IMG/VR virus record: IMGVR_UViG_2534681675_000020
Length of the DNA stretch: 11,067 nt
Reading direction: 5' to 3' (one strand)
Source of the DNA: a virus
Taxonomy: Duplodnaviria > Heunggongvirae > Uroviricota > Caudoviricetes
A program made the translations under genes and the position numbers. Under the pieces are notes generated by a model. It ran no database searches and was not told the origin of the DNA. It saw only the letters and a program-made list of their open reading frames with translations. Every line of letters starts with the position of its first letter. The first letter of the stretch is position 1. Below, piece by piece: positions 506-11,067 of the stretch.

Positions 506-1577
506 TGGATTTGCCCCTATATTTCCAGACATCTGTTATCACTTAACCCATTACAAGCCCGCTGCCGCAGATATTCCCGTGGCGAGCGATAACCCAGCGC
601 ACTATGCGGATGCCATTCGTTATAATGCTCGAACGCCTCTGCAAGGTTCTTTGCTGCCGTTAACCCGTCTGGTTTGGGCATGATACTGATGTAGTCACGC
701 TTTATCGTTTTCACGAAGCTCTCTGCTATTCCGTTACTCTCCGGACTCCGCACCGCCGTGTTCTTCGGTTCAAGTCCCAACATCCGGGCGAACTGGCGTG
801 TTTCATTAGCCCGGTAGCATGAACCATTATCCGTCAGCCACTCCACTGGAGACGACGGAAGATCGTTGCCGAAGCGGCGTTCCACCGCTCCCAGCATGAC
901 GTCCTGTACTGTTTCACTGTTGAAGCCGCCGGTAGTGACCGCCCAGTGCAGTGCCTCACGATCACAGCAGTCCAGCGCGAACGTGACACGCAGTCTCTCT
1001 CCGTTATCACAGCAGAACTCGAACCCGTCAGAGCACCATCGCTGATTGCTTTCTTTCACGGCCACTCTGCCTGTATGTGCCCGTTTCGATGGCGGTACAG
1101 CAGGTTTTCGCTCAAGCAACAGCGCATTCTGGCGCATGATCCGGTAAACACGTTTGGCATTGATCGCAGGCATACCATCAAGTTCTGCCTGTCTGCGAAG
1201 CAGCGCCCATACCCGACGATAACCATACGTGGGCAGCTCTCCGATAACATGGTGTATACGGAGAAGCACATCCGTATCATCAGTGTGACGACTGCGGCGG
1301 CCATCCATCCAGTCATCGGTTCGTCTGAGAATGACGTGCAACTGCGCACGCGACACCCGGAGACAACGGCTGACTAAGCTTACTCCCCATCCCCGGGCAA
1401 TAAGGGCGCGTGCGCTATCCACTTTTTTGCCCGTCCATATTCAACGGCTTCTTTGAGGAGTTCATTTTCCATCGTTTTCTTGCCGAGCAGGCGCTGGAGT
1501 TCTTTAATCTGCTTCATGGCGGCAGCAAGTTCAGAGGCAGGAACAACCTGTTCTCCGGCGGCGACAGCAGTAAGCGT
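506..1577 (-). mobile_element. IS2 remnant: right end (IRR) intact, left ~250 bp (IRL and 5' part of insC) absent
   Basis: Terminal sequence TGGATTTGCCCCTATATTTCCAGACATCTGTTATCACTTAACC at 506-548 matches the remembered IS2 IRR. insD is intact but insC homology stops near 1575 and no IRL sequence is present in the window. Confidence 0.85.
517..1422 (-). CDS. insD: IS2 transposase OrfB (InsD)
   Basis: 301-aa translation with a DDE-type core and the C-terminus ...[24 protein letters not shown], matching IS2 InsD as remembered. The A6G slippery motif (minus-strand CAAAAAAG, + coordinates 1422-1429) is retained at the insC/insD overlap. Confidence 0.9.
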
Positions 1578-1592
1578 TCGCCGTGCCAGCAT
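1380..1592 (-). pseudogene. insC: IS2 insC (OrfA), 5'-truncated
   Basis: Translation from L (1572-1574) onward, [64 protein letters not shown], matches the C-terminal half of IS2 InsC. The N-terminal HTH part is missing and an in-frame TGA lies a few codons upstream of the fortuitous ATG at 1592. Confidence 0.8.
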
Positions 1593-1785: not shown

Positions 1786-1865
1786 GGATCCCGAAAAATT
1801 TTCATAAATAGTGAAAACGCGCGAGGTCGCCGCCCCGTAACAGGTCCATATGCCGGAAAGGACCC

Positions 1866-2669: not shown

Positions 2670-3725
2670 TTAACCAATTTTGACGGTAACAAATTTGCGA
2701 ATATCTGCCGGAACCGGCTGCGGTGCGCTGTGCGTCTGCACGTACTCAATCGCCGGATCGCCGTCCTCAATCCAGTTTTTCGGGTAAAACATGTTTTGCG
2801 TTGCGCCCGTTCTGACCGCTTCCTGATCCATAATCGCACCATAGGCCACCAGCCCTTTATTGTTGGTGTTGCCCAGGACCAGCAAATCAGGCTCAAGGAA
2901 ATATTTTTCGGTGCCGTCGCTGTCAGTGTATTTGCCGGAATAGACGATAAGGGCAATATCGCCCAGATATCCTTTAAAGCTCACCACTTCGCCCAGGTTT
3001 TTACAGGCCAGCTCTGCGGAGGACTCTGAACCACGGGAAAGATCGTACAGTTCGCGGAATTTTTTAAAGCTGCGTAACGTTCGCCATACCTCAGCGCCCA
3101 TGATCATGACGTTGGCGGGGCAACATGCTTGATCCGCATAAAGCTCGATATCATAGATTGGATCGTGGGTTTCTTTGTCCTGCTCGGACCATTTACGGCC
3201 TTTGGCCTGCTCTATGATGTTTTTTTCCGGTATCTTCCAGTCGATTTCATAGCGTTCTATGCCTTCGCCCTCAATGATGTTTTTTCCGGTCGTTATCGCA
3301 TTCACCGCCAGCCATTCCACGCGCGCTTTAATCGCGTTTATCTGGCGGCGCATGTTGCCAGTAATCAGGCGCATACGGCGATAGGTTGGGTCATTAAGCT
3401 GTGCCGGATCTTCTCCAGCCATACGTATGATGGTTTTCGTTGGATCGATTTCGTGCTTCGGCTTCATGTATCCAGGTTTAATCGTGCTGGTTTCGTACCC
3501 TTTATCGCGCTGGACCTGACTACCCACCATAGGCGAACAAAACGCCGACATCGTAACCTCTTCAATGTCCAGGGTGTCCAGCATGATGTTTTGGGTGTTG
3601 AATGTCGCCACGTTCGGGAAAAACAGCGTGGTAAACAGCGGACTGAATTTAAATTCCGCAATATCCCCGCGATTCAGGTACATGAAAAGCTGGTTAGTGT
3701 TAAGTGCCGTTGCTTTGCCTGCCAT
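2670..3725 (-). CDS. major capsid protein, lambda gpE-like
   Basis: 351 aa (lambda gpE is 341 aa). Motifs FKFSPLFTTLFF, GYMKPKHEIDP, DPAQLNDPTYRRMR, YPKNWIEDGDPA and the C-terminus ADIRKFVTVKIG are collinear with remembered gpE. The start overlaps the upstream stop (TAATG). Confidence 0.85.
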   Translation of the reverse strand: MAGKATALNTNQLFMYLNRGDIAEFKFSPLFTTLFFPNVATFNTQNIMLDTLDIEEVTMSAFCSPMVGSQVQRDKGYETSTIKPGYMKPKHEIDPTKTIIRMAGEDPAQLNDPTYRRMRLITGNMRRQINAIKARVEWLAVNAITTGKNIIEGEGIERYEIDWKIPEKNIIEQAKGRKWSEQDKETHDPIYDIELYADQACCPANVMIMGAEVWRTLRSFKKFRELYDLSRGSESSAELACKNLGEVVSFKGYLGDIALIVYSGKYTDSDGTEKYFLEPDLLVLGNTNNKGLVAYGAIMDQEAVRTGATQNMFYPKNWIEDGDPAIEYVQTHSAPQPVPADIRKFVTVKIG

Positions 3726-3931
3726 TATTCACCCCCATAATTTTTATGCATCCCAAGCGCCGCAAGTAAATAAGAGCGTACAAGTGAACCTATCGACGGC
3801 TCCGGCGTCATCAGCGGATCCAGTCCAGCCGCCACGCCAGCCTCATAGTTTTTTTTGTGGCGCTGCTTGAGCACCTCCACGATTTCGGGGCTTATGTACA
3901 CCGAAACACCGCCTTTTTTCTCTTCAGCCAT
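3725..3931 (-). CDS. hypothetical protein, 68 aa, translationally coupled to the capsid gene
   Basis: ATG at 3929-3931 with AGAGGA RBS 10 nt upstream; its stop overlaps the capsid start codon. No recognisable motif. Confidence 0.5.
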   Translation of the reverse strand: MAEEKKGGVSVYISPEIVEVLKQRHKKNYEAGVAAGLDPLMTPEPSIGSLVRSYLLAALGMHKNYGGE

Positions 3932-3958
3932 AGTAAGAAATTCCTCTTTGACTTAAAA

Positions 3959-4016
3959 AATCAGAACTGGATGTTCATCCAGTTCTGATTATAATCATGA
4001 TTGCATTTTATGCAAT
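3959..4016. promoter_or_regulatory. promoter/operator region of the capsid operon: 32-bp palindrome plus a second 7-3-7 palindrome around a palindromic -10 (ATTATAAT)
   Basis: Near-perfect palindrome AATCAGAACTGGATG-TT-CATCCAGTTCTGATT (3959-3990). ATTATAAT at 3988-3995 reads TATAAT on both strands. ATTGCAT-TTT-ATGCAAT at 4000-4016 overlaps a minus-strand -35-like TTGCAT with 16-nt spacing to the -10. Confidence 0.4.
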
Positions 4017-4095
4017 GATGTTGAGTTGTGTTGCAAATTATGAAATGATGATCCCGATCATGTGTGTCAGTGCACCAAAAAGCCTCATATGCAAA

Positions 4096-4132
4096 AGCCC
4101 GATAAGCCACCTCTGACCTTATCGGGCTTTTT
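4096..4132. terminator. bidirectional rho-independent terminator-like hairpin
   Basis: Stem AGCCCGATAAG (4096-4106) / CTTATCGGGCT (4118-4128) with an 11-nt loop, followed by T5 on the + strand and flanked by A4 on the other side. Confidence 0.45.
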
Positions 4133-4307
4133 TATCTGCCTGCAAAGATGTCGAACAAAAATTAACCACAACCATCATCTTTTTTGCATCAAAACAATTA
4201 AAAACAATAAATTACGCTCATGATGATGATGACGATAAAATCACAAAAATGCGCTTTTTTCCGCGCCTCCCGCCCCGTGTTCAGGCCCACCCCGCCAGGA
4301 GGACCCG

Positions 4308-4331
4308 TAAAAAAGCCGGATTGCTCCGGCT
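4308..4331 (-). terminator. rho-independent terminator after ssb
   Basis: Hairpin GCCGGA-TTGC-TCCGGC (4315-4330) preceded on the + strand by A6 (4309-4314), 17 nt after the SSB stop. Nearly identical to the terminator cassette at 1866-1890. Confidence 0.5.
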
Positions 4332-4346
4332 TCTGTCACTCGTCGC

Positions 4347-4769
4347 TTAAAACGGTATGTTATCCCCGTACGGATCATCATTCCCCGCCTGTTGTTTTGC
4401 CCTGTTCAGCGCGTCAGTAGCCTGGCCCTGTTGACCTTTTTTGCCGCCCAGTCGCGCCGTTCGCGCACTGATTACACTGTCTGCGATAACCTGCCAGCCC
4501 TGCCGCGTTTCTCCGTTCTGCCCAGTCCACTGGCTGATCTGCATGTTACCCGCCACGCTCAGGAGTTCACCCTTGCGGTGCCTTTCCAGTGCTTCGGCCT
4601 GTCTGCCAAATGCCAGGACGGATAACCACATCGTCGCCGTTCCGTCATCTGCCTGGCTGCACGGAAGGGGGACCGCCATACGCGCCAGCGTCATCGGTGT
4701 GCCCTTGCTGGTCTGTTTTACCTGCGGGTCGTCCACCAGCCGCCCGTAAGCGGCTATCTGTGCTGTCAT
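4347..4769 (-). CDS. ssb: single-stranded DNA-binding protein (SSB family)
   Basis: 140 aa. OB-fold region WLSVLAFGRQAEALERHRKGELLSVAGNMQISQWTGQNGETRQGWQVIA parallels E. coli SSB ([50 protein letters not shown]); Gly/Gln-rich linker and C-terminal acidic tip ...DDPYGDNIPF (SSB ends DDDIPF). GGAGAGG RBS. Confidence 0.8.
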   Translation of the reverse strand: MTAQIAAYGRLVDDPQVKQTSKGTPMTLARMAVPLPCSQADDGTATMWLSVLAFGRQAEALERHRKGELLSVAGNMQISQWTGQNGETRQGWQVIADSVISARTARLGGKKGQQGQATDALNRAKQQAGNDDPYGDNIPF

Positions 4770-5332: not shown

Positions 5333-7087
5333 TTATAAAAACGCGTCGCACTCGTCTGTTGTTATTGCGTTAGTCTGCGTTACTCCCTTAACTTTCCGCG
5401 TAATATATTCATGTCCGTAAACTTTCGCGGCTGGCTTCATAGCCTTGCCAAAGTCATTTACGTTTAGCGGTTTGCTCCTGCCTGCGTACGCCATAAACGC
5501 CAGATAGACGCGATAAAGGCTGTTCCTGGTCGTGTACTTCACTGAATCACCACCGCCACCCATCATCAGGCCGCGCGCTTCCTCCAGAAAATTCAGGAAC
5601 TGGCAAAACTCAATAACCGGATCCGTCTGTTGCTTTATTGCCAGTGCTTCATCACCGTCACGCTGTTCCAGTAGTAAAGCCCGTGCCTTCTCAGGGTCGG
5701 TAAAGTTCGCCAGCAATCGGCGGATAATGACAGGGATTTCAGCCGCAATCTTTTCCGGTAGCTCCCTGTCTTTTTCGGCCTCACTGACGATATTGTCGAA
5801 ACGGAAAATTACGCGACGACGTGACACACCTCCGGCCCGTTCGGTGAATATCATCGGGTTATTGTTGGTAGCCAGCACCACCGCCCTGATTACCGCCGTA
5901 AAACGCTTTTCATATTTCGGGTTAATTTCCACGGGGTCGCCGCCCGTGATTTTCTTGATGCCCGTTCCTTCGCCTGTATATTTCGGCTGGTCAGCCAGGA
6001 CGATAAGACGACTCCCGACAACCTGCGCACGTCCACCAGCATCATCAAGCGATGTCATCTCCGCGCTCACCGTGTTCTGTTTCCCTGCCAGAAGGCTGGC
6101 TATGTGCGTGAATGTACTTTTACCGCTCCCGCCGTCTCCGGTGGCCTCAATAAACATCTGCCAGTCGTACCGGTTCGCCATAATCATGTACAGCGCGGCA
6201 CATATACGCATCATCTTGCGCGGGTCTTTTCCGGCTACGTGCTCAAGCCATTTATGAAAGTTTGGCGCGTTGTCGCGGATATTCTCCCCTGGTGCTGGTG
6301 GCGTGTACTCAATACCGTTGTGCGTGGTGATCCAGTTCTCCGGCGTGTGCGGGGAAAATTCCCCCGTTTTCAGGTCAAGCGCACCATTGGCGAACGGCAG
6401 CAAATCGCCGGACGGCTCGCCCATTGGTTCGGCAATAACTTTTAACGCTTCCACGGCGTTATTGATTACGCGCTTGCTGAAAGTGGCCCTGTGCTCTGAA
6501 TAGATCGCCACCATTTCGCGGCTAAGTTCCATTGTGCTGACCGGACACCATACCCCGCCGCGCCATACGTAAACGATTTCACTTTCAGGATGTACGCAAA
6601 CGCCATCAAAGCGATCGGCAAGCAGCTGCGCGCGCTCACTGTCCGCCATCTGCGAAAGTTGCGCCTTTTGCTTTACCGGAAGCTCAATGACCAGACCATC
6701 AGAAAGATTCTGTCGCTCACGGGCCAGATATTCGCGCCAGTTCTGCACCTCTTGGCCGTGCATACCCTCAGGATAAAAATTTGCATCCTGTACGCCTGCC
6801 GCCGCCAGCTTCTGGCCAATCGCCTTTATCATTACTGGCGCAAGATATCCGGCCCTGAATATGCGCACGGATTTTCTGCCTTCCGGCACAATTTGCAGCT
6901 TATCCAGTTCTGATAACTGCTGCTCCCCAAGCCACACAGGAGGCTCATTATCTCCGGCCAGACGCGCGTCATGTTCCTGCCATTGTTTTGCGTGTGACCA
7001 GGCATCACTACCCGCAAAAATAATGACTTCTGTTTCTTTGTGTTTTATGCCGCGTGACTGCTGTTTTACGTTCGGTGCCAGTTTCAT
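5333..7087 (-). CDS. P4-family DNA primase/helicase (replication initiator)
   Basis: 584 aa with Walker A GDGGSGKST, a downstream Walker B-like LIVLAD and a primase-like N-terminal half; architecture typical of phage/plasmid P4-alpha-type primases. Start overlaps the upstream stop (ATGA). Confidence 0.85.
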   Translation of the reverse strand: MKLAPNVKQQSRGIKHKETEVIIFAGSDAWSHAKQWQEHDARLAGDNEPPVWLGEQQLSELDKLQIVPEGRKSVRIFRAGYLAPVMIKAIGQKLAAAGVQDANFYPEGMHGQEVQNWREYLARERQNLSDGLVIELPVKQKAQLSQMADSERAQLLADRFDGVCVHPESEIVYVWRGGVWCPVSTMELSREMVAIYSEHRATFSKRVINNAVEALKVIAEPMGEPSGDLLPFANGALDLKTGEFSPHTPENWITTHNGIEYTPPAPGENIRDNAPNFHKWLEHVAGKDPRKMMRICAALYMIMANRYDWQMFIEATGDGGSGKSTFTHIASLLAGKQNTVSAEMTSLDDAGGRAQVVGSRLIVLADQPKYTGEGTGIKKITGGDPVEINPKYEKRFTAVIRAVVLATNNNPMIFTERAGGVSRRRVIFRFDNIVSEAEKDRELPEKIAAEIPVIIRRLLANFTDPEKARALLLEQRDGDEALAIKQQTDPVIEFCQFLNFLEEARGLMMGGGGDSVKYTTRNSLYRVYLAFMAYAGRSKPLNVNDFGKAMKPAAKVYGHEYITRKVKGVTQTNAITTDECDAFL

Positions 7088-7616: not shown

Positions 7617-7839
7617 CACACAGTTTCTCCCTGATTCTTTTAGTGTCCTCATTGAGGATGTCTGTAGCTTTTGTCAGTGAGTTTTTGATAATTATTTTTA
7701 TTGTTTTAAATTTTCTTTTGTCGTACTCCGACTGTGATTTCCTCTCCATGATCTCTACCATGCAATTTATATCCACAAGCGCATGTATCAGTACTTTCAA
7801 TGCTTCGCCTGCTGCGTCCGGCGTGTTTTTATTGCACAT
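7609..7839 (-). CDS. hypothetical protein, 76 aa (AT-rich gene)
   Basis: ATG at 7837-7839 (MCNKNTPDAAGE...) preceded by AGGAGG with 5-nt spacing. The track ORF extends to 7881, but that upstream start has no RBS. Confidence 0.5.
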   Translation of the reverse strand: MCNKNTPDAAGEALKVLIHALVDINCMVEIMERKSQSEYDKRKFKTIKIIIKNSLTKATDILNEDTKRIREKLCDA

Positions 7840-8443
7840 GGCGCACCTCCTGACGAATACGGGCGGCGAATACAGCAACACAACCGGACGGGCAACGACT
7901 ACGCGCTTCGCGTTCCGTCCAGGCGGTTACGTGGATGATTTGGGATTCTGACGCGCCAAAGATGATAAAGCGCCAGATAAAGGCAGTTTGAGAATGTACG
8001 AGGGCAGGGATAGTAGCCATGTTGGCAGCCTCTTCGTTAGGTTTAATAAACCCACCGCAGGAAACGCCAATTTCGCTGGCGGTGGACTGTACAGGGTTGG
8101 CGTAACCGGTTAACGAAGAACCCGGCGCGGATTGCTCCGCCCCCATACAGCCCACCATTGATAAGGTGTGACTATCCGGCACAAAAAAACACGCAGGGCG
8201 CGTGTTGTGCGCTTCGTTAAATACCAGGACGCCAATCCCGGCACCAGATTTTGCTGGTGCGGATAAATCATAGCCCTGGCTGGCAATGGCGATCAACTGG
8301 TTTTTCTGGCGTGCTTCCTGTTCGCTGGTGGCCTCAATGGTAATCACGCGCGGTTGTGCTGTGCTCAGGGCGATAAAACGCCAGATATATTTATTCAGGT
8401 TGTGCGAGTCCCGCCCTTGCGGGTGTATGGTATGATTTAACAT
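7829..8443 (-). CDS. hypothetical protein, 204 aa, with a diverged internal repeat; first gene of the leftward early operon
   Basis: ATG at 8441-8443 with GAGG 5 nt upstream; C-terminus overlaps the next gene by 11 nt. N- and C-terminal segments repeat: IWRFIALSTAQPRVITIEATSEQEAR versus IWRFIIFGASESQIIHVTAWTEREAR. It is the C-terminal part of a 423-codon open frame whose upstream part is judged non-coding. Confidence 0.4.
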   Translation of the reverse strand: MLNHTIHPQGRDSHNLNKYIWRFIALSTAQPRVITIEATSEQEARQKNQLIAIASQGYDLSAPAKSGAGIGVLVFNEAHNTRPACFFVPDSHTLSMVGCMGAEQSAPGSSLTGYANPVQSTASEIGVSCGGFIKPNEEAANMATIPALVHSQTAFIWRFIIFGASESQIIHVTAWTEREARSRCPSGCVAVFAARIRQEVRHVQ

Positions 8444-8525
8444 AGCTACCTCGATACTCTCGTTATCGTTGGTGGTTAGAAGCCCGGTTAGTGTTAGCGC
8501 ACTGCCGGGTTTCGTCGTTTCTGCA

Positions 8526-8622
8526 CCTTGTATCAACAAGGTGTAAGACACAATGTAAAATAATAGTGTCTTACACGTCAACCCTTCAAAATAATTTTTT
8601 TTCGTGTATATTGTCTTACACC
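8526..8622. promoter_or_regulatory. divergent control region: three copies of operator motif GTGTAAGACAC plus a sigma70-like promoter for the + strand gene
   Basis: GTGTAAGACAC at 8541-8551, inverted GTGTCTTACAC at 8566-8576, third copy TGTCTTACAC at 8612-8621; small palindrome CCTTG-TATCAA-CAAGG at 8526-8541. -35 TTCAAA (8585-8590), 16-nt spacer, -10 TATATT (8607-8612). Confidence 0.45.
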
Positions 8623-8642
8623 AAAAACATAAGGAGTTAGAC

Positions 8643-8822
8643 ATGGCAACAGGTCCAAAGAATGCAAAATCACAATCTGTAACTGCACGTATTGCCCATG
8701 AAATTATTGAAGGCATGGAAAACGTGAAAGAAGAAGGCGAAAGTACAGGGCAGTTTATAAGTGCAGCCATGCGCGGCGAGATCAAACGCCGCCAGCGCCG
8801 CAAGGCCAAAGAGCAGGAGTAG
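8643..8822 (+). CDS. small DNA-binding-like protein (possible ribbon-helix-helix fold), 59 aa; candidate island regulator
   Basis: ATG at 8643 with AGGAG 6 nt upstream. A short beta-like segment SVTARIAHEII is followed by two predicted helices and a basic tail KRRQRRKAKEQE. It is the only convincing + strand gene in the window. The fold is inferred, not searched. Confidence 0.5.
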   Translation: MATGPKNAKSQSVTARIAHEIIEGMENVKEEGESTGQFISAAMRGEIKRRQRRKAKEQE

Positions 8823-8925
8823 CTCCACCGGAATTTTTTTCCGGTTACGCTTTGCCCACCAGCCGCAAATGTGGCATTGTTGGCTATGCTCATGCGTTGG
8901 GGATAACGTGTAGCTTGTGTCGAGG

Positions 8926-8953
8926 GGCCACCGTAGCGGGTGGCCTTTGTTTT
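8926..8953 (+). terminator. rho-independent terminator
   Basis: Stem GGCCACC (8926-8932) / GGTGGCC (8939-8945), loop GTAGCG, followed by TTTGTTTT. Confidence 0.45.
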
Positions 8954-9049
8954 GCCTGTTATCCGGCAATTGTGGCGCTTCGTCACACGGTTGATATAAT
9001 TCCACTGCACTGATCCATTTTTTTCGCAGCAGGTTAATTGTTCGCAAGG

Positions 9050-9077
9050 GCGCTCCGGCAACGGGGCGCTTTTTGTT
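9050..9077 (+). terminator. rho-independent terminator with GNRA loop
   Basis: 8-bp stem GCGCTCCG / CGGGGCGC with one G-U pair, loop GCAA, followed by TTTTTGTT. Confidence 0.45.
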
Positions 9078-9104
9078 ATGTTCATCGCGTTACGCCTCAC
9101 ACCA

Positions 9105-9375: not shown

Positions 9376-9418
9376 AAAAACAGTACCCACCGTTTTAAAA
9401 CGGTACCCACTGTTTTTT
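9376..9418. promoter_or_regulatory. composite palindrome upstream of alpA (possible operator or bidirectional terminator)
   Basis: Perfect 16-bp palindrome ACCGTTTTAAAACGGT (9389-9404) flanked by direct repeats GTACCCAC (9383-9390, 9403-9410) and outer arms AAAAACAGT / ACTGTTTTTT. Confidence 0.35.
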
Positions 9419-9724: not shown

Positions 9725-9825
9725 TCGGATAACTCCTTGAATTTCAAGAGTCGGGTCTCTCTGTATATGGTGATTATACGATGGTTTAGCATGGTTTGCA
9801 TCGCTTTTACTGGTTTTTTGTACAG

Positions 9826-11067
9826 TTACACGGCACGGATACCCCTTTTACCACTGGCTATGGTCACTCCGGTTGCTGCGGCCTCTACAAATTCCCCCCA
9901 CCAGCGCATAAGCACCACGCGCTTTTCCAGGTAGTTACTTCGGTTATATGCTCGCCTTACCTCGTTCGTGTCCACGTGTGCGAGTGCGGCCTCGATTACG
10001 TCCGGCTCGAATCCTTCCTCGTTCGCTGCTGTGCTGAATATGGCGCGTAATCCATGAGACACCAGCACGCCAGCGAATCCCATTCGCCGCAATGCTGCGT
10101 TGGCGGTCTGGCTGTTCATAGGCTGCCGTGGGTCTTTCAGGCTAGGGAAAACGTGCTCGCGGTGGTGGCTGATTGGCTTCATGGCCTCCAGTACCGCCAT
10201 AGCCTGACTACAAAGCGGGATAACGTGATCACGCCGCATCTTCATGCGTCCGGCGGGGATCGTCCATTGTTGCGCGTCCATGTCGATTTCTTCCCAGCGT
10301 GCTGACGATGCTTCAACCGGACGGGTTACAGTCAGTAGCTGCCATTCAATCAGTAATCTGGTCTGCCGTTCTGTTGCTGATACGGATAAAGCCTGCATAA
10401 GCTCCGGCAACTGTTCGGGGCGGATTGTTGGCATATGTTTTTTTACAGGGGAGGGGAACGCCTTACGCACATTCATAGCCGGATTGGCATCAATCAGCCC
10501 ACTGTTGGCGGCGTAATCCATTACCTCATTAACGCGCTGTAAAACCCGCTTGAGTGTTTCCAGGTTGCCGCGCTCCTTGATGGGTGTAAGCACCTCAACG
10601 AACCTTCGGGCAGTGAGGGTATCTATTGGCGTGTTGCCGATGAACGGGAATACATATTTATCCAGCGAACGCCAGATGTCTTTAATCGTGTTGGGGGCCA
10701 GATTCTGGCTGATTTTCACCTGGTACCATGCCGCCGCCACATTTTCGAACGTGTTCCCTTGTCTTCGGGCCTCTGCCTCTCGTTTTTTCTTCTCATGGTC
10801 CTGCGGGTCAGTTCCGGCACTGATTAACGTCCTGTACTCGCTACGGCGTTTTCTGGCATCAGCCAGGGAAACATCTTCAAGCGATCCAAAACTCAGCAAT
10901 ATTCTTTTTTTGTCCGATGGTCGGTAGTAGGAAAATCGCCAGAGTTTTGATCCGGACGGTTTTACCAGGAGAAAAAGCCCACCGCCGTCCTGTAGGGTGT
11001 ACTCCTTTTGCGCTGGTCTGGCTGCTTTGATCTGCACTGTGGTTAATGGGGGTGTTTTTCTCGCCAT
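9826..11067 (-). CDS. int: tyrosine recombinase, P4-type integrase
   Basis: 413 aa. N-terminal arm-binding motif LQDGGGLFLLVKPSGSKLWRFSYY; catalytic-domain signatures HGLRAIFSTAANEEGF...AALAH and the tyrosine region RRAYNRSNYLEKR. The start codon sits at the window edge, so the true start could lie beyond it. Confidence 0.9.
   Translation of the reverse strand: MARKTPPLTTVQIKAARPAQKEYTLQDGGGLFLLVKPSGSKLWRFSYYRPSDKKRILLSFGSLEDVSLADARKRRSEYRTLISAGTDPQDHEKKKREAEARRQGNTFENVAAAWYQVKISQNLAPNTIKDIWRSLDKYVFPFIGNTPIDTLTARRFVEVLTPIKERGNLETLKRVLQRVNEVMDYAANSGLIDANPAMNVRKAFPSPVKKHMPTIRPEQLPELMQALSVSATERQTRLLIEWQLLTVTRPVEASSARWEEIDMDAQQWTIPAGRMKMRRDHVIPLCSQAMAVLEAMKPISHHREHVFPSLKDPRQPMNSQTANAALRRMGFAGVLVSHGLRAIFSTAANEEGFEPDVIEAALAHVDTNEVRRAYNRSNYLEKRVVLMRWWGEFVEAAATGVTIASGKRGIRAV

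Follow-up and report, generated by a model that had tools for sequence, protein, structure and literature searches.

LexA is the host repressor of the DNA-damage (SOS) response. Genes under its tight control usually have boxes that overlap the start site (PMC8072944). Among phage satellites, operon I of the S. aureus islands (SaPIs), which serves packaging and morphogenesis, is LexA-controlled according to Ubeda et al. (2007, Mol Microbiol 65:41), as cited in PMC6092414. The prototype Gram-negative PICI is EcCICFT073, and islands of its type are widespread and serve as model Gram-negative phage satellites. In the published model (Fillol-Salom et al. 2018, 2019), AlpA is the activator, Rpp redirects packaging and helper factors act as triggers; the same authors named the capsid and decoration genes c1499 and c1500. 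Expression of EcCICFT073 alpA was explicitly reported not to be SOS-dependent, and its induction needs a helper phage, not SOS alone (PMC6092414). SOS is therefore not the only trigger of the island. The timing of the capsid/packaging (Rpp) operon is not described in the literature searched. A LexA site at the capsid promoter is not mentioned in PMC6092414, in the Rpp paper (PMC6739421) or in the other literature searched, nor is LexA control of a Gram-negative PICI packaging operon. Lambda Q and P. aeruginosa AlpA work through an element between -35 and -10 and a downstream intrinsic terminator (PMC7969949, PMC9371919).

The stretch of DNA analysed here (the window, 11,067 nt) is a PICI-like island homologous to EcCICFT073. 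We propose that the core of a 32-bp palindrome at its capsid promoter is a LexA operator that would gate the capsid/packaging operon, and we give this reading a probability of roughly 0.6. The site would then be a predicted Gram-negative counterpart of the LexA-controlled SaPI operon I. As the cited SaPI work is presented in PMC6092414, the two are alike in that a satellite's packaging-remodelling or packaging-redirecting operon would stand under the host SOS repressor and be expressed when the helper is SOS-induced. They differ in that the genes and promoter of the window have no homology to their SaPI counterparts and the SaPI LexA motif is of the Gram-positive type. The SaPI case is also, by the same account, an experimental one, whereas the E. 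coli case is a prediction from sequence. If the palindrome is a LexA operator, Gram-negative and staphylococcal satellites would have reached the same control logic independently, and antibiotics and other SOS inducers would directly turn on satellite packaging and interference genes. The best explanation of the palindrome is a familiar type of element, an SOS box, whose location is what makes it interesting.

The island and its capsid-operon promoter

All long ORFs of the window run leftward. They begin with an integrase (9826-11067), an AlpA-family regulator (PF05930; 9105-9311), a D5-type primase (5333-7087) and an SSB (4347-4769), and the capsid module follows. The first gene of the operon, separated from ssb by a gap of 415 nt, encodes a 68-aa protein (phrog_3255; 3725-3931, minus strand, ATG at 3931-3929) with no Pfam match. 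Next come a lambda E-type major capsid protein (capsid E, 2670-3725), a lambda D-type decoration protein (decoration D, 2323-2658) and a scaffold-like gene (1896-2312). No Nu1-like Rpp gene was seen in this window, so its packaging module may be disrupted. EcCICFT073 has the 68-aa gene, capsid gene c1499 and decoration gene c1500, with a near-identical promoter region and an identical predicted LexA box. In CFT073 the capsid and decoration genes are thus preceded by the same upstream region, and the module is shared. E. coli GB089 carries a 99% identical copy of the island beside tRNA-Pro and yejM, and the region was matched in about 1,040 of 5,426 complete E. coli genomes.

The DNA upstream of the 68-aa gene is very probably the leftward promoter of the capsid operon, as the earlier note had supposed. 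A predicted -10 hexamer, TATAAT, was read from the sequence at 3988..3993 (minus strand), 56 nt upstream of the ATG. The palindromic ATTATAAT (3988-3995), which does read as TATAAT on both strands as that note had said, encloses it, as does TGATTATAATCA (3986-3997). The hexamer is TATAAT in 91 of 93 homologous loci, the exceptions being TGTAAT (L043) and TATAAC (L066). A predicted -35 hexamer, TTGCAT, was read at 4010..4015 (minus strand), 16 bp from the -10. This arrangement, TTGCAT-16-TATAAT, falls within the sigma-70 spacing of 16-18 bp. Across haplotypes TTGC is invariant and the last two bases are AT, AC, GC, GT, GA or AA. The -10 matches the consensus at 6 of 6 positions and the -35 at 3-4 of 6. 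A consensus scan that requires 4 of 6 matches in each hexamer does not list the promoter, because it counts only 3 of 6 in the -35. Every locus retains the ribosome-binding site AAGAGG (3943..3948, minus strand, read from the sequence). Read in gene sense, the elements run O2, O1 with the -35 (O1 and O2 being two small dyads), the 16-bp spacer, TATAAT, the palindrome, a T-run, AAGAGG and the ATG. By eye, neither a sigma-54 motif nor the P2/P4 Ogr-Delta late-promoter motif (TGT-N12-ACA) is present here.

Two terminators lie upstream. One is an intrinsic terminator just after ssb (about 4307-4337). The other, at 4093..4135, is a strong bidirectional intrinsic terminator recognised from its inverted repeat and fold; it ends the replication module and has the better T-run on the plus strand. 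With two terminators upstream, a local promoter is needed for the capsid operon. Matches to O157 and O145 reach only window position 4133, and the replication modules there differ. Since islands with other replication modules are homologous only as far as the second terminator, 4093-4135 marks the boundary between the replication and packaging modules. Many relatives carry inserted PerC-family genes in the interval between these terminators.

The promoter block is 88.9% identical to that of relative L006 and 71.3% to that of the Salmonella locus L010. The corresponding values are 75.6% and 57.8% for the 68-aa gene and 94.2% and 70.0% for the capsid gene. A non-coding block is thus conserved as strongly as the capsid gene, and its greater conservation than that of the 68-aa gene indicates that it is under purifying selection.

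A predicted LexA box within the 32-bp palindrome

The -10/+1 side of the promoter is covered by a perfect 32-bp palindrome at 3959..3990 (minus strand), AATCAGAACTGGATG-TT-CATCCAGTTCTGATT, seen both in the inverted-repeat listing and in the RNA fold. It has a 15-2-15 layout with arms that are 100% complementary, and the chance expectation for such a repeat in 11 kb is about 1e-4. The palindrome had been reported before; its CTG-N10-CAG core had not. The core, CTGGATGTTCATCCAG at 3967-3982, lies within a predicted LexA (SOS) box that reads AACTGGATGAACATCCAGTT in gene sense (3965..3984, minus strand) and has a heterology index (HI) of 6.98. This HI refers to a matrix built here from 18 E. coli boxes in PMC3009722, not to the original Lewis matrix. 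On this matrix the 18 known boxes score 0.27-9.29 (0.6-12.6 in leave-one-out scoring), with ruvA at 6.54 and uvrB at 6.62 against the 6.98 of the capsid promoter. A best HI of 7 or less was reached by 0.1% of 1000 Markov 11-kb sequences. The site thus lies within the range of known boxes and scores better than background.

In form the box is nearest to those of ruvA (CTGGAT...ATCCAG) and recA. Like the E. coli SOS boxes of ruvA (CGCTGGATATCTATCCAGCA), cho, uvrB and recA, it is a 20-bp CTG-N10-CAG dyad with an A/T-rich centre and an HI in the same range, and it has the CTGGAT...ATCCAG half-sites of ruvA and cho. Half-sites of the type CTGG/CCAG, rather than the commoner CTGT/ACAG, probably mean moderate affinity. 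The box lies 4 nt after the conserved predicted TATAAT, ends 33 nt before the ATG and precedes the ribosome-binding site. Lying 4 nt after a -10 would be the classic position for a repressor, and chromosomal SOS boxes are likewise found at or next to the -10 and +1. Unlike those boxes, this one is set within a 32-bp palindrome, is followed by a T-run, has a terminator-like character and is carried by a mobile element.

Only one other site in the window has an HI of 10 or less, AACTGTACAAAAAACCAGTA at 9808-9827 (minus strand), with an HI of 4.68. This second, better-scoring predicted box directly adjoins the stop codon of int, and 29 nt downstream of it lies a TATAAT (9778-9773) in front of an 80-aa ORF and alpA. 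It is conserved in other islands, as AGCTGTACAGAAAACCAGTA. The int-alpA spacer of EcCICFT073 has only a degenerate version in which ...CAC replaces CAG, and this degeneracy would fit the published finding that alpA is not SOS-inducible there.

Under LexA control, the sigma-70 promoter TTGCAT-16 bp-TATAAT would drive the leftward capsid/packaging operon of this EcCICFT073-type PICI, and the central 20 bp of the palindrome would be the operator, covering the expected start site. In an undamaged cell, LexA on the box would block RNA polymerase. DNA damage would bring about LexA self-cleavage, and the operon would be derepressed as the lambdoid helper prophage is induced. The 68-aa protein, the capsid E and decoration D homologues, the scaffold-like protein and, in intact islands, Rpp would then be made. 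O1, over the -35 and spacer, and O2, near -60, would make up a control element of their own, one with wider conservation. LexA binding, the start site and a regulator of O1/O2 are what we infer, from features, scores, conservation and a geometry relative to the -10 that were observed directly. The earlier note had proposed two regulators or a repressor/activator pair here, in keeping with helper-dependent late-gene control. Two different dyads are indeed consistent with two regulators, but the large one is better read as an operator of the host's LexA, which would couple the operon to DNA damage rather than to a late regulator encoded by the helper.

Box and hairpin across relatives

The comparison covered 93 homologous loci with the palindrome. 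They come from E. coli genomes, from 80 IMG/VR contigs and from Salmonella, which supplied two loci with a 68-aa protein of only about 55% identity. Relatives were drawn from E. coli genomes and IMG/VR, plus four look-ups of encoding contigs; genome-contig scans with the capsid protein and with the 68-aa alignment returned no relatives, and the phage collection held no DNA or protein match to the promoter or the 68-aa protein. CTG-N10-CAG is intact in 92 of the 93 loci, EcCICFT073 and Salmonella included, and the one exception has a 1-nt insertion. Every one of the 93 loci scanned has exactly one site with an HI of 9.5 or less, and the HI of all box variants is 5.2-9.2. In a register alignment of 90 loci, which comprise 21 distinct 32-mers, positions 9-14 (CTGGAT), 19-20 and 22-25 (AT.CAGT) are invariant. 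Variation is found mainly at positions 6-8, 27 and 29, at the edge of the 20-mer or outside it. Two recurrent substitutions within the box move it toward the LexA consensus and lower its HI, and each of them costs the stem one pair. G15->A is found in 22 loci; C21->A, which gives ATACAG, is found in 9, on two or more backgrounds. Selection on LexA recognition would predict such a pattern, and selection on pairing alone would not be expected to produce it.

Pairing in the arms is kept less strictly. Stem pair 12-21 is broken in 9 loci and pair 15-18 in 24. Pair 6-27 occurs as T:A, as G:C (in the window) and as C:G, and is non-Watson-Crick in 53 of 90 loci. Where pairs 7-26 and 8-25 depart from Watson-Crick, they are mostly G:T (38 loci), equivalent to G.U in the sense RNA, with A:C rare. 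Conservation extends to the T-run and to the flanks beyond the 20-mer (AATCA...TGATT). A LexA box alone does not explain the conserved flanks, the T-run or the states of pair 6-27, and these features suggest an additional hairpin or terminator role.

The minus-strand RNA of 3959-3990 folds into a 14-bp stem (5 G-C pairs) with a 4-nt loop (-19.8 kcal/mol, z = -4.95). A T/U run follows directly at 3955..3960 (minus strand), with six U at 3960-3955 of which two can pair. Such a stem-loop with an immediate U-run has the make-up of an intrinsic terminator, and the terminator scan called the palindrome and U-run terminator-like. All leader variants compared have a T5-T7 run after ...TGAT, and the hairpin energy of 30 distinct homologous leaders is -9.4 to -22.2 kcal/mol. 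The terminator-like structure thus appears to be maintained as well, loosely. The 5' arm of the hairpin begins within the -10 hexamer, and the start predicted from the adjacent -10 falls inside this arm. RNA begun about 7 nt after TATAAT would keep a hairpin of about 7-9 bp, about 4 nt from the U-run. Because the 5' arm is mostly absent from RNA of the local promoter, the structure could terminate only transcripts from further upstream. Attenuation or antitermination in the leader, raised in the earlier note as an alternative, is consistent with the fold and the U-run, but with the 5' arm inside the -10 it could act only on such upstream transcripts.

This geometry bears on how the 32 bp might be used. 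They may serve as insulator, operator and promoter-proximal element at once, the promoter lying within the 5' arm of a terminator that carries the LexA box. RNA arriving from upstream would hold both arms and stop at the U-run; RNA from the LexA-controlled +1 would be without the 5' arm and proceed into the capsid operon, and SOS gating would be tight. In an extended form, AlpA-modified polymerase would pass all three terminators when the helper infects without SOS. We regard this composite arrangement as a tentative reading that is possible but improbable. It is unlikely that the palindrome and T-run are primarily an intrinsic terminator, next in line after the two upstream, with an incidental likeness to a LexA box, which would stop transcripts of the replication module or would act as a leader attenuator overridden by a processive antiterminator (island AlpA or helper Q). 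The 14-bp hairpin of -19.8 kcal/mol, its U-run and the terminator-like call all suit a terminator, as does the retention of hairpin and T5-T7 across haplotypes (-9.4 to -22.2 kcal/mol). So do the compensatory states at pair 6-27 and the prevalence of G.U over rare A:C at pairs 7-26 and 8-25, and the P. aeruginosa AlpA antiterminator loads between -35 and -10 (PMC7969949). Yet the invariant bases are exactly the LexA-critical ones, and both G15->A and C21->A improve the LexA score at the expense of the stem. About half of the loci have a mismatch at pair 6-27, a full stem is impossible in RNA from the local promoter, and two good terminators already lie upstream. The two GTGGGTAC repeats of the alpA promoter are also absent from the capsid promoter. 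The promoter does superficially resemble the Q and AlpA systems in having O1 over the -35 and spacer, a hairpin and U-run downstream, and an AlpA-family protein (PF05930) encoded by the island. It is unlike them in that the hairpin starts inside the -10, hence is absent from the promoter's own transcript, and O1 bears no resemblance to the GGGACG-N5-GGTA of P. aeruginosa AlpA. A Q/AlpA-type antitermination site was rejected on these grounds: the hairpin is not downstream of the predicted start, the element shows no similarity and the alpA repeats are missing.

It is more doubtful still that some non-LexA regulator of the island or the helper phage uses the palindrome as its operator. Such a protein could account for a symmetry that reaches 32 bp in the window, beyond the 20-bp LexA box. 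The 68-aa gene product, which has a weak ribbon-helix-helix resemblance, accompanies the promoter throughout the loci, and neighbouring genes are often of the PerC family. In most relatives, however, the extended symmetry is imperfect, while the LexA core never varies; agreement with the LexA matrix is far better than chance, and the CTG-N10-CAG site list holds no second copy of the 32-mer motif in the window. Very improbable is a rightward role, in which the palindromic -10 would also or mainly drive an RNA of about 135 nt, from about 4001 to the 4135 terminator, with O1/O2 conserved as part of a small RNA rather than as protein sites. The TATAAT on both strands and the better plus-strand T-run of the 4093-4135 terminator would allow for this, and the first 55 nt or so are the most conserved intergenic part. 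But the -35 position on that strand is CTGGAT, a match at only 2 of 6 positions, and the sequence from O2 to the terminator is not conserved between lineages, which leaves no conserved body. There is no Rfam family match, and a 39-codon plus-strand ORF at 3997 loses its start codon in many haplotypes. That ORF was rejected as a gene: the ATG at 3997 is not conserved and substitutions are mostly non-synonymous. A known RNA family at the promoter was likewise ruled out, with no Rfam match near 3900-4150. The LexA operator remains the preferred reading of the palindrome core.

The segment 3945-4060 holds the window's densest cluster of TGAT/ATCA, with 8 tetramers in 116 nt. One part of it, TGATT-N2-AATCA, surrounds the -10, and a further TGATT follows the LexA box. 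Under a Markov model of the segment, such an enrichment has P = 0.22 and is not significant.

Upstream dyads, the LexA-less lineage and other features of the island

The -35 side of the promoter carries a different dyad, O1 (ATTGCAT-N3-ATGCAAT, 4000..4016), which lies over the -35 and spacer and is centred at about -27. This 7-3-7 dyad had been described before and is present as reported: 4000-4016 reads ATTGCAT-TTT-ATGCAAT and extends to 11-3-11 with one mismatch (3996-4020). In gene sense, O1 with the -35 is ATTGCATAAAATGCAAT, with TTGCAT inside. Perfect inverted repeats with arms of 7 nt or more and a loop no longer than 10 number 9 in the window, where Markov nulls give 5.8 +/- 2.2. A 7-3-7 repeat is therefore not unusual alone, and the weight of O1 comes from its position and conservation. 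What is conserved is the core ATTGC-N7-GCAAT (= TTGCA-N5-TGCAA). The inner two bases on the left vary freely, with no compensating changes on the right, so the perfect 7-3-7 of the window is not itself selected. Both palindromes are perfect in the window, but not in most relatives, where pair 6-27 of the large one is non-Watson-Crick (53 of 90 loci) and the dyad is reduced to its core. O1 persists in E. coli and Salmonella (L010, L011), and also in a lineage without the LexA box (L098-L102). Its conservation is in part that of the -35 itself.

A second site, which the earlier note had not recorded, lies 30 bp upstream. O2 (4030..4050, about -50 to -69 with its centre near -58) is a degenerate copy of the O1 region and reads CATCATTTCATAATTTGCAAC in gene sense. 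It is 85% identical to the O1 region at a spacing of 30 nt, and its TTTCATAATTTGCAAC is nearly invariant across 52 haplotypes. Salmonella and L098-L102 also have recognisable variants of O2. The retention in three lineages of two related sites, 30 bp from each other, suggests a dimeric regulator, and we infer that such a protein may bind O1/O2. O1 was compared with the consensus sites of ArgR, PurR, Cra, FadR, Fur and IHF as well as the LysR T-N11-A motif, and none of these fits well. Just upstream of alpA (9383-9410, minus strand), a perfect 16-bp palindrome, ACCGTTTTAAAACGGT, has a GTGGGTAC direct repeat on either side, the two copies being 20 bp apart. These repeats and the palindrome are candidate sites of AlpA autoregulation. 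An AlpA site at the capsid promoter was rejected, the GTGGGTAC repeats being absent there.

The same capsid module occurs without a LexA box in 22 E. coli genomes (e.g. STEC313) and four IMG/VR contigs. The loci are at about 1400-1500 in L098-L101 and at 6080-6190 in L102 (E. coli STEC313). This lineage keeps O2, O1 (as ATTGCAAAAAATGCAAT) and the -10, as TAAAAT. After the -10 it reads AATCA-TGAC-TGATTTTTCGTTATGTTTGTTTTTT, and a T-rich tract remains. The four IMG/VR loci scanned have no site with an HI of 12 or less and no strong hairpin. Compared with this lineage, loci that carry the LexA box appear to differ by an indel of about 18 bp within a small 5-4-5 palindrome. Since the sister lineage has O1, O2 and the -10 but no box, LexA control is dispensable for this promoter family. 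O1/O2 would then be the older shared control element and LexA control a layer that was added or lost, and the LexA-less lineage offers a natural comparison for islands that carry the box.

Several other features were seen elsewhere in the window. A perfect lambda cosN core, GGGCGGCGACCT, lies at 1824-1835 (minus strand), just 3' of the scaffold-like gene, and is presumably the cos site of the island, used with the helper terminase. The promoter region was ruled out as a cos site on account of this cosN. IS3-family transposase ORFs at 517-1592 (minus strand; orfB 517-1422 and an orfA fragment 1380-1592) separate the capsid module from a PerC-like gene (1-372), and the 99% identical island of GB089 has hypothetical genes where the window has these ORFs. 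Rfam matches at 8075-8273 (minus strand) comprise the C4 antisense RNA (8075-8162, 75 bits), isrK (8184-8260, 80 bits) and, below threshold, the c4 a1/b1 target region (8221-8273, 42.9 bits; gathering score 46.7). This segment is a P1/P7-type RNA immunity cassette adjoining an Icd-like gene, and the 423-aa ORF at 7829-9100 that crosses the C4 and isrK RNAs is probably spurious.
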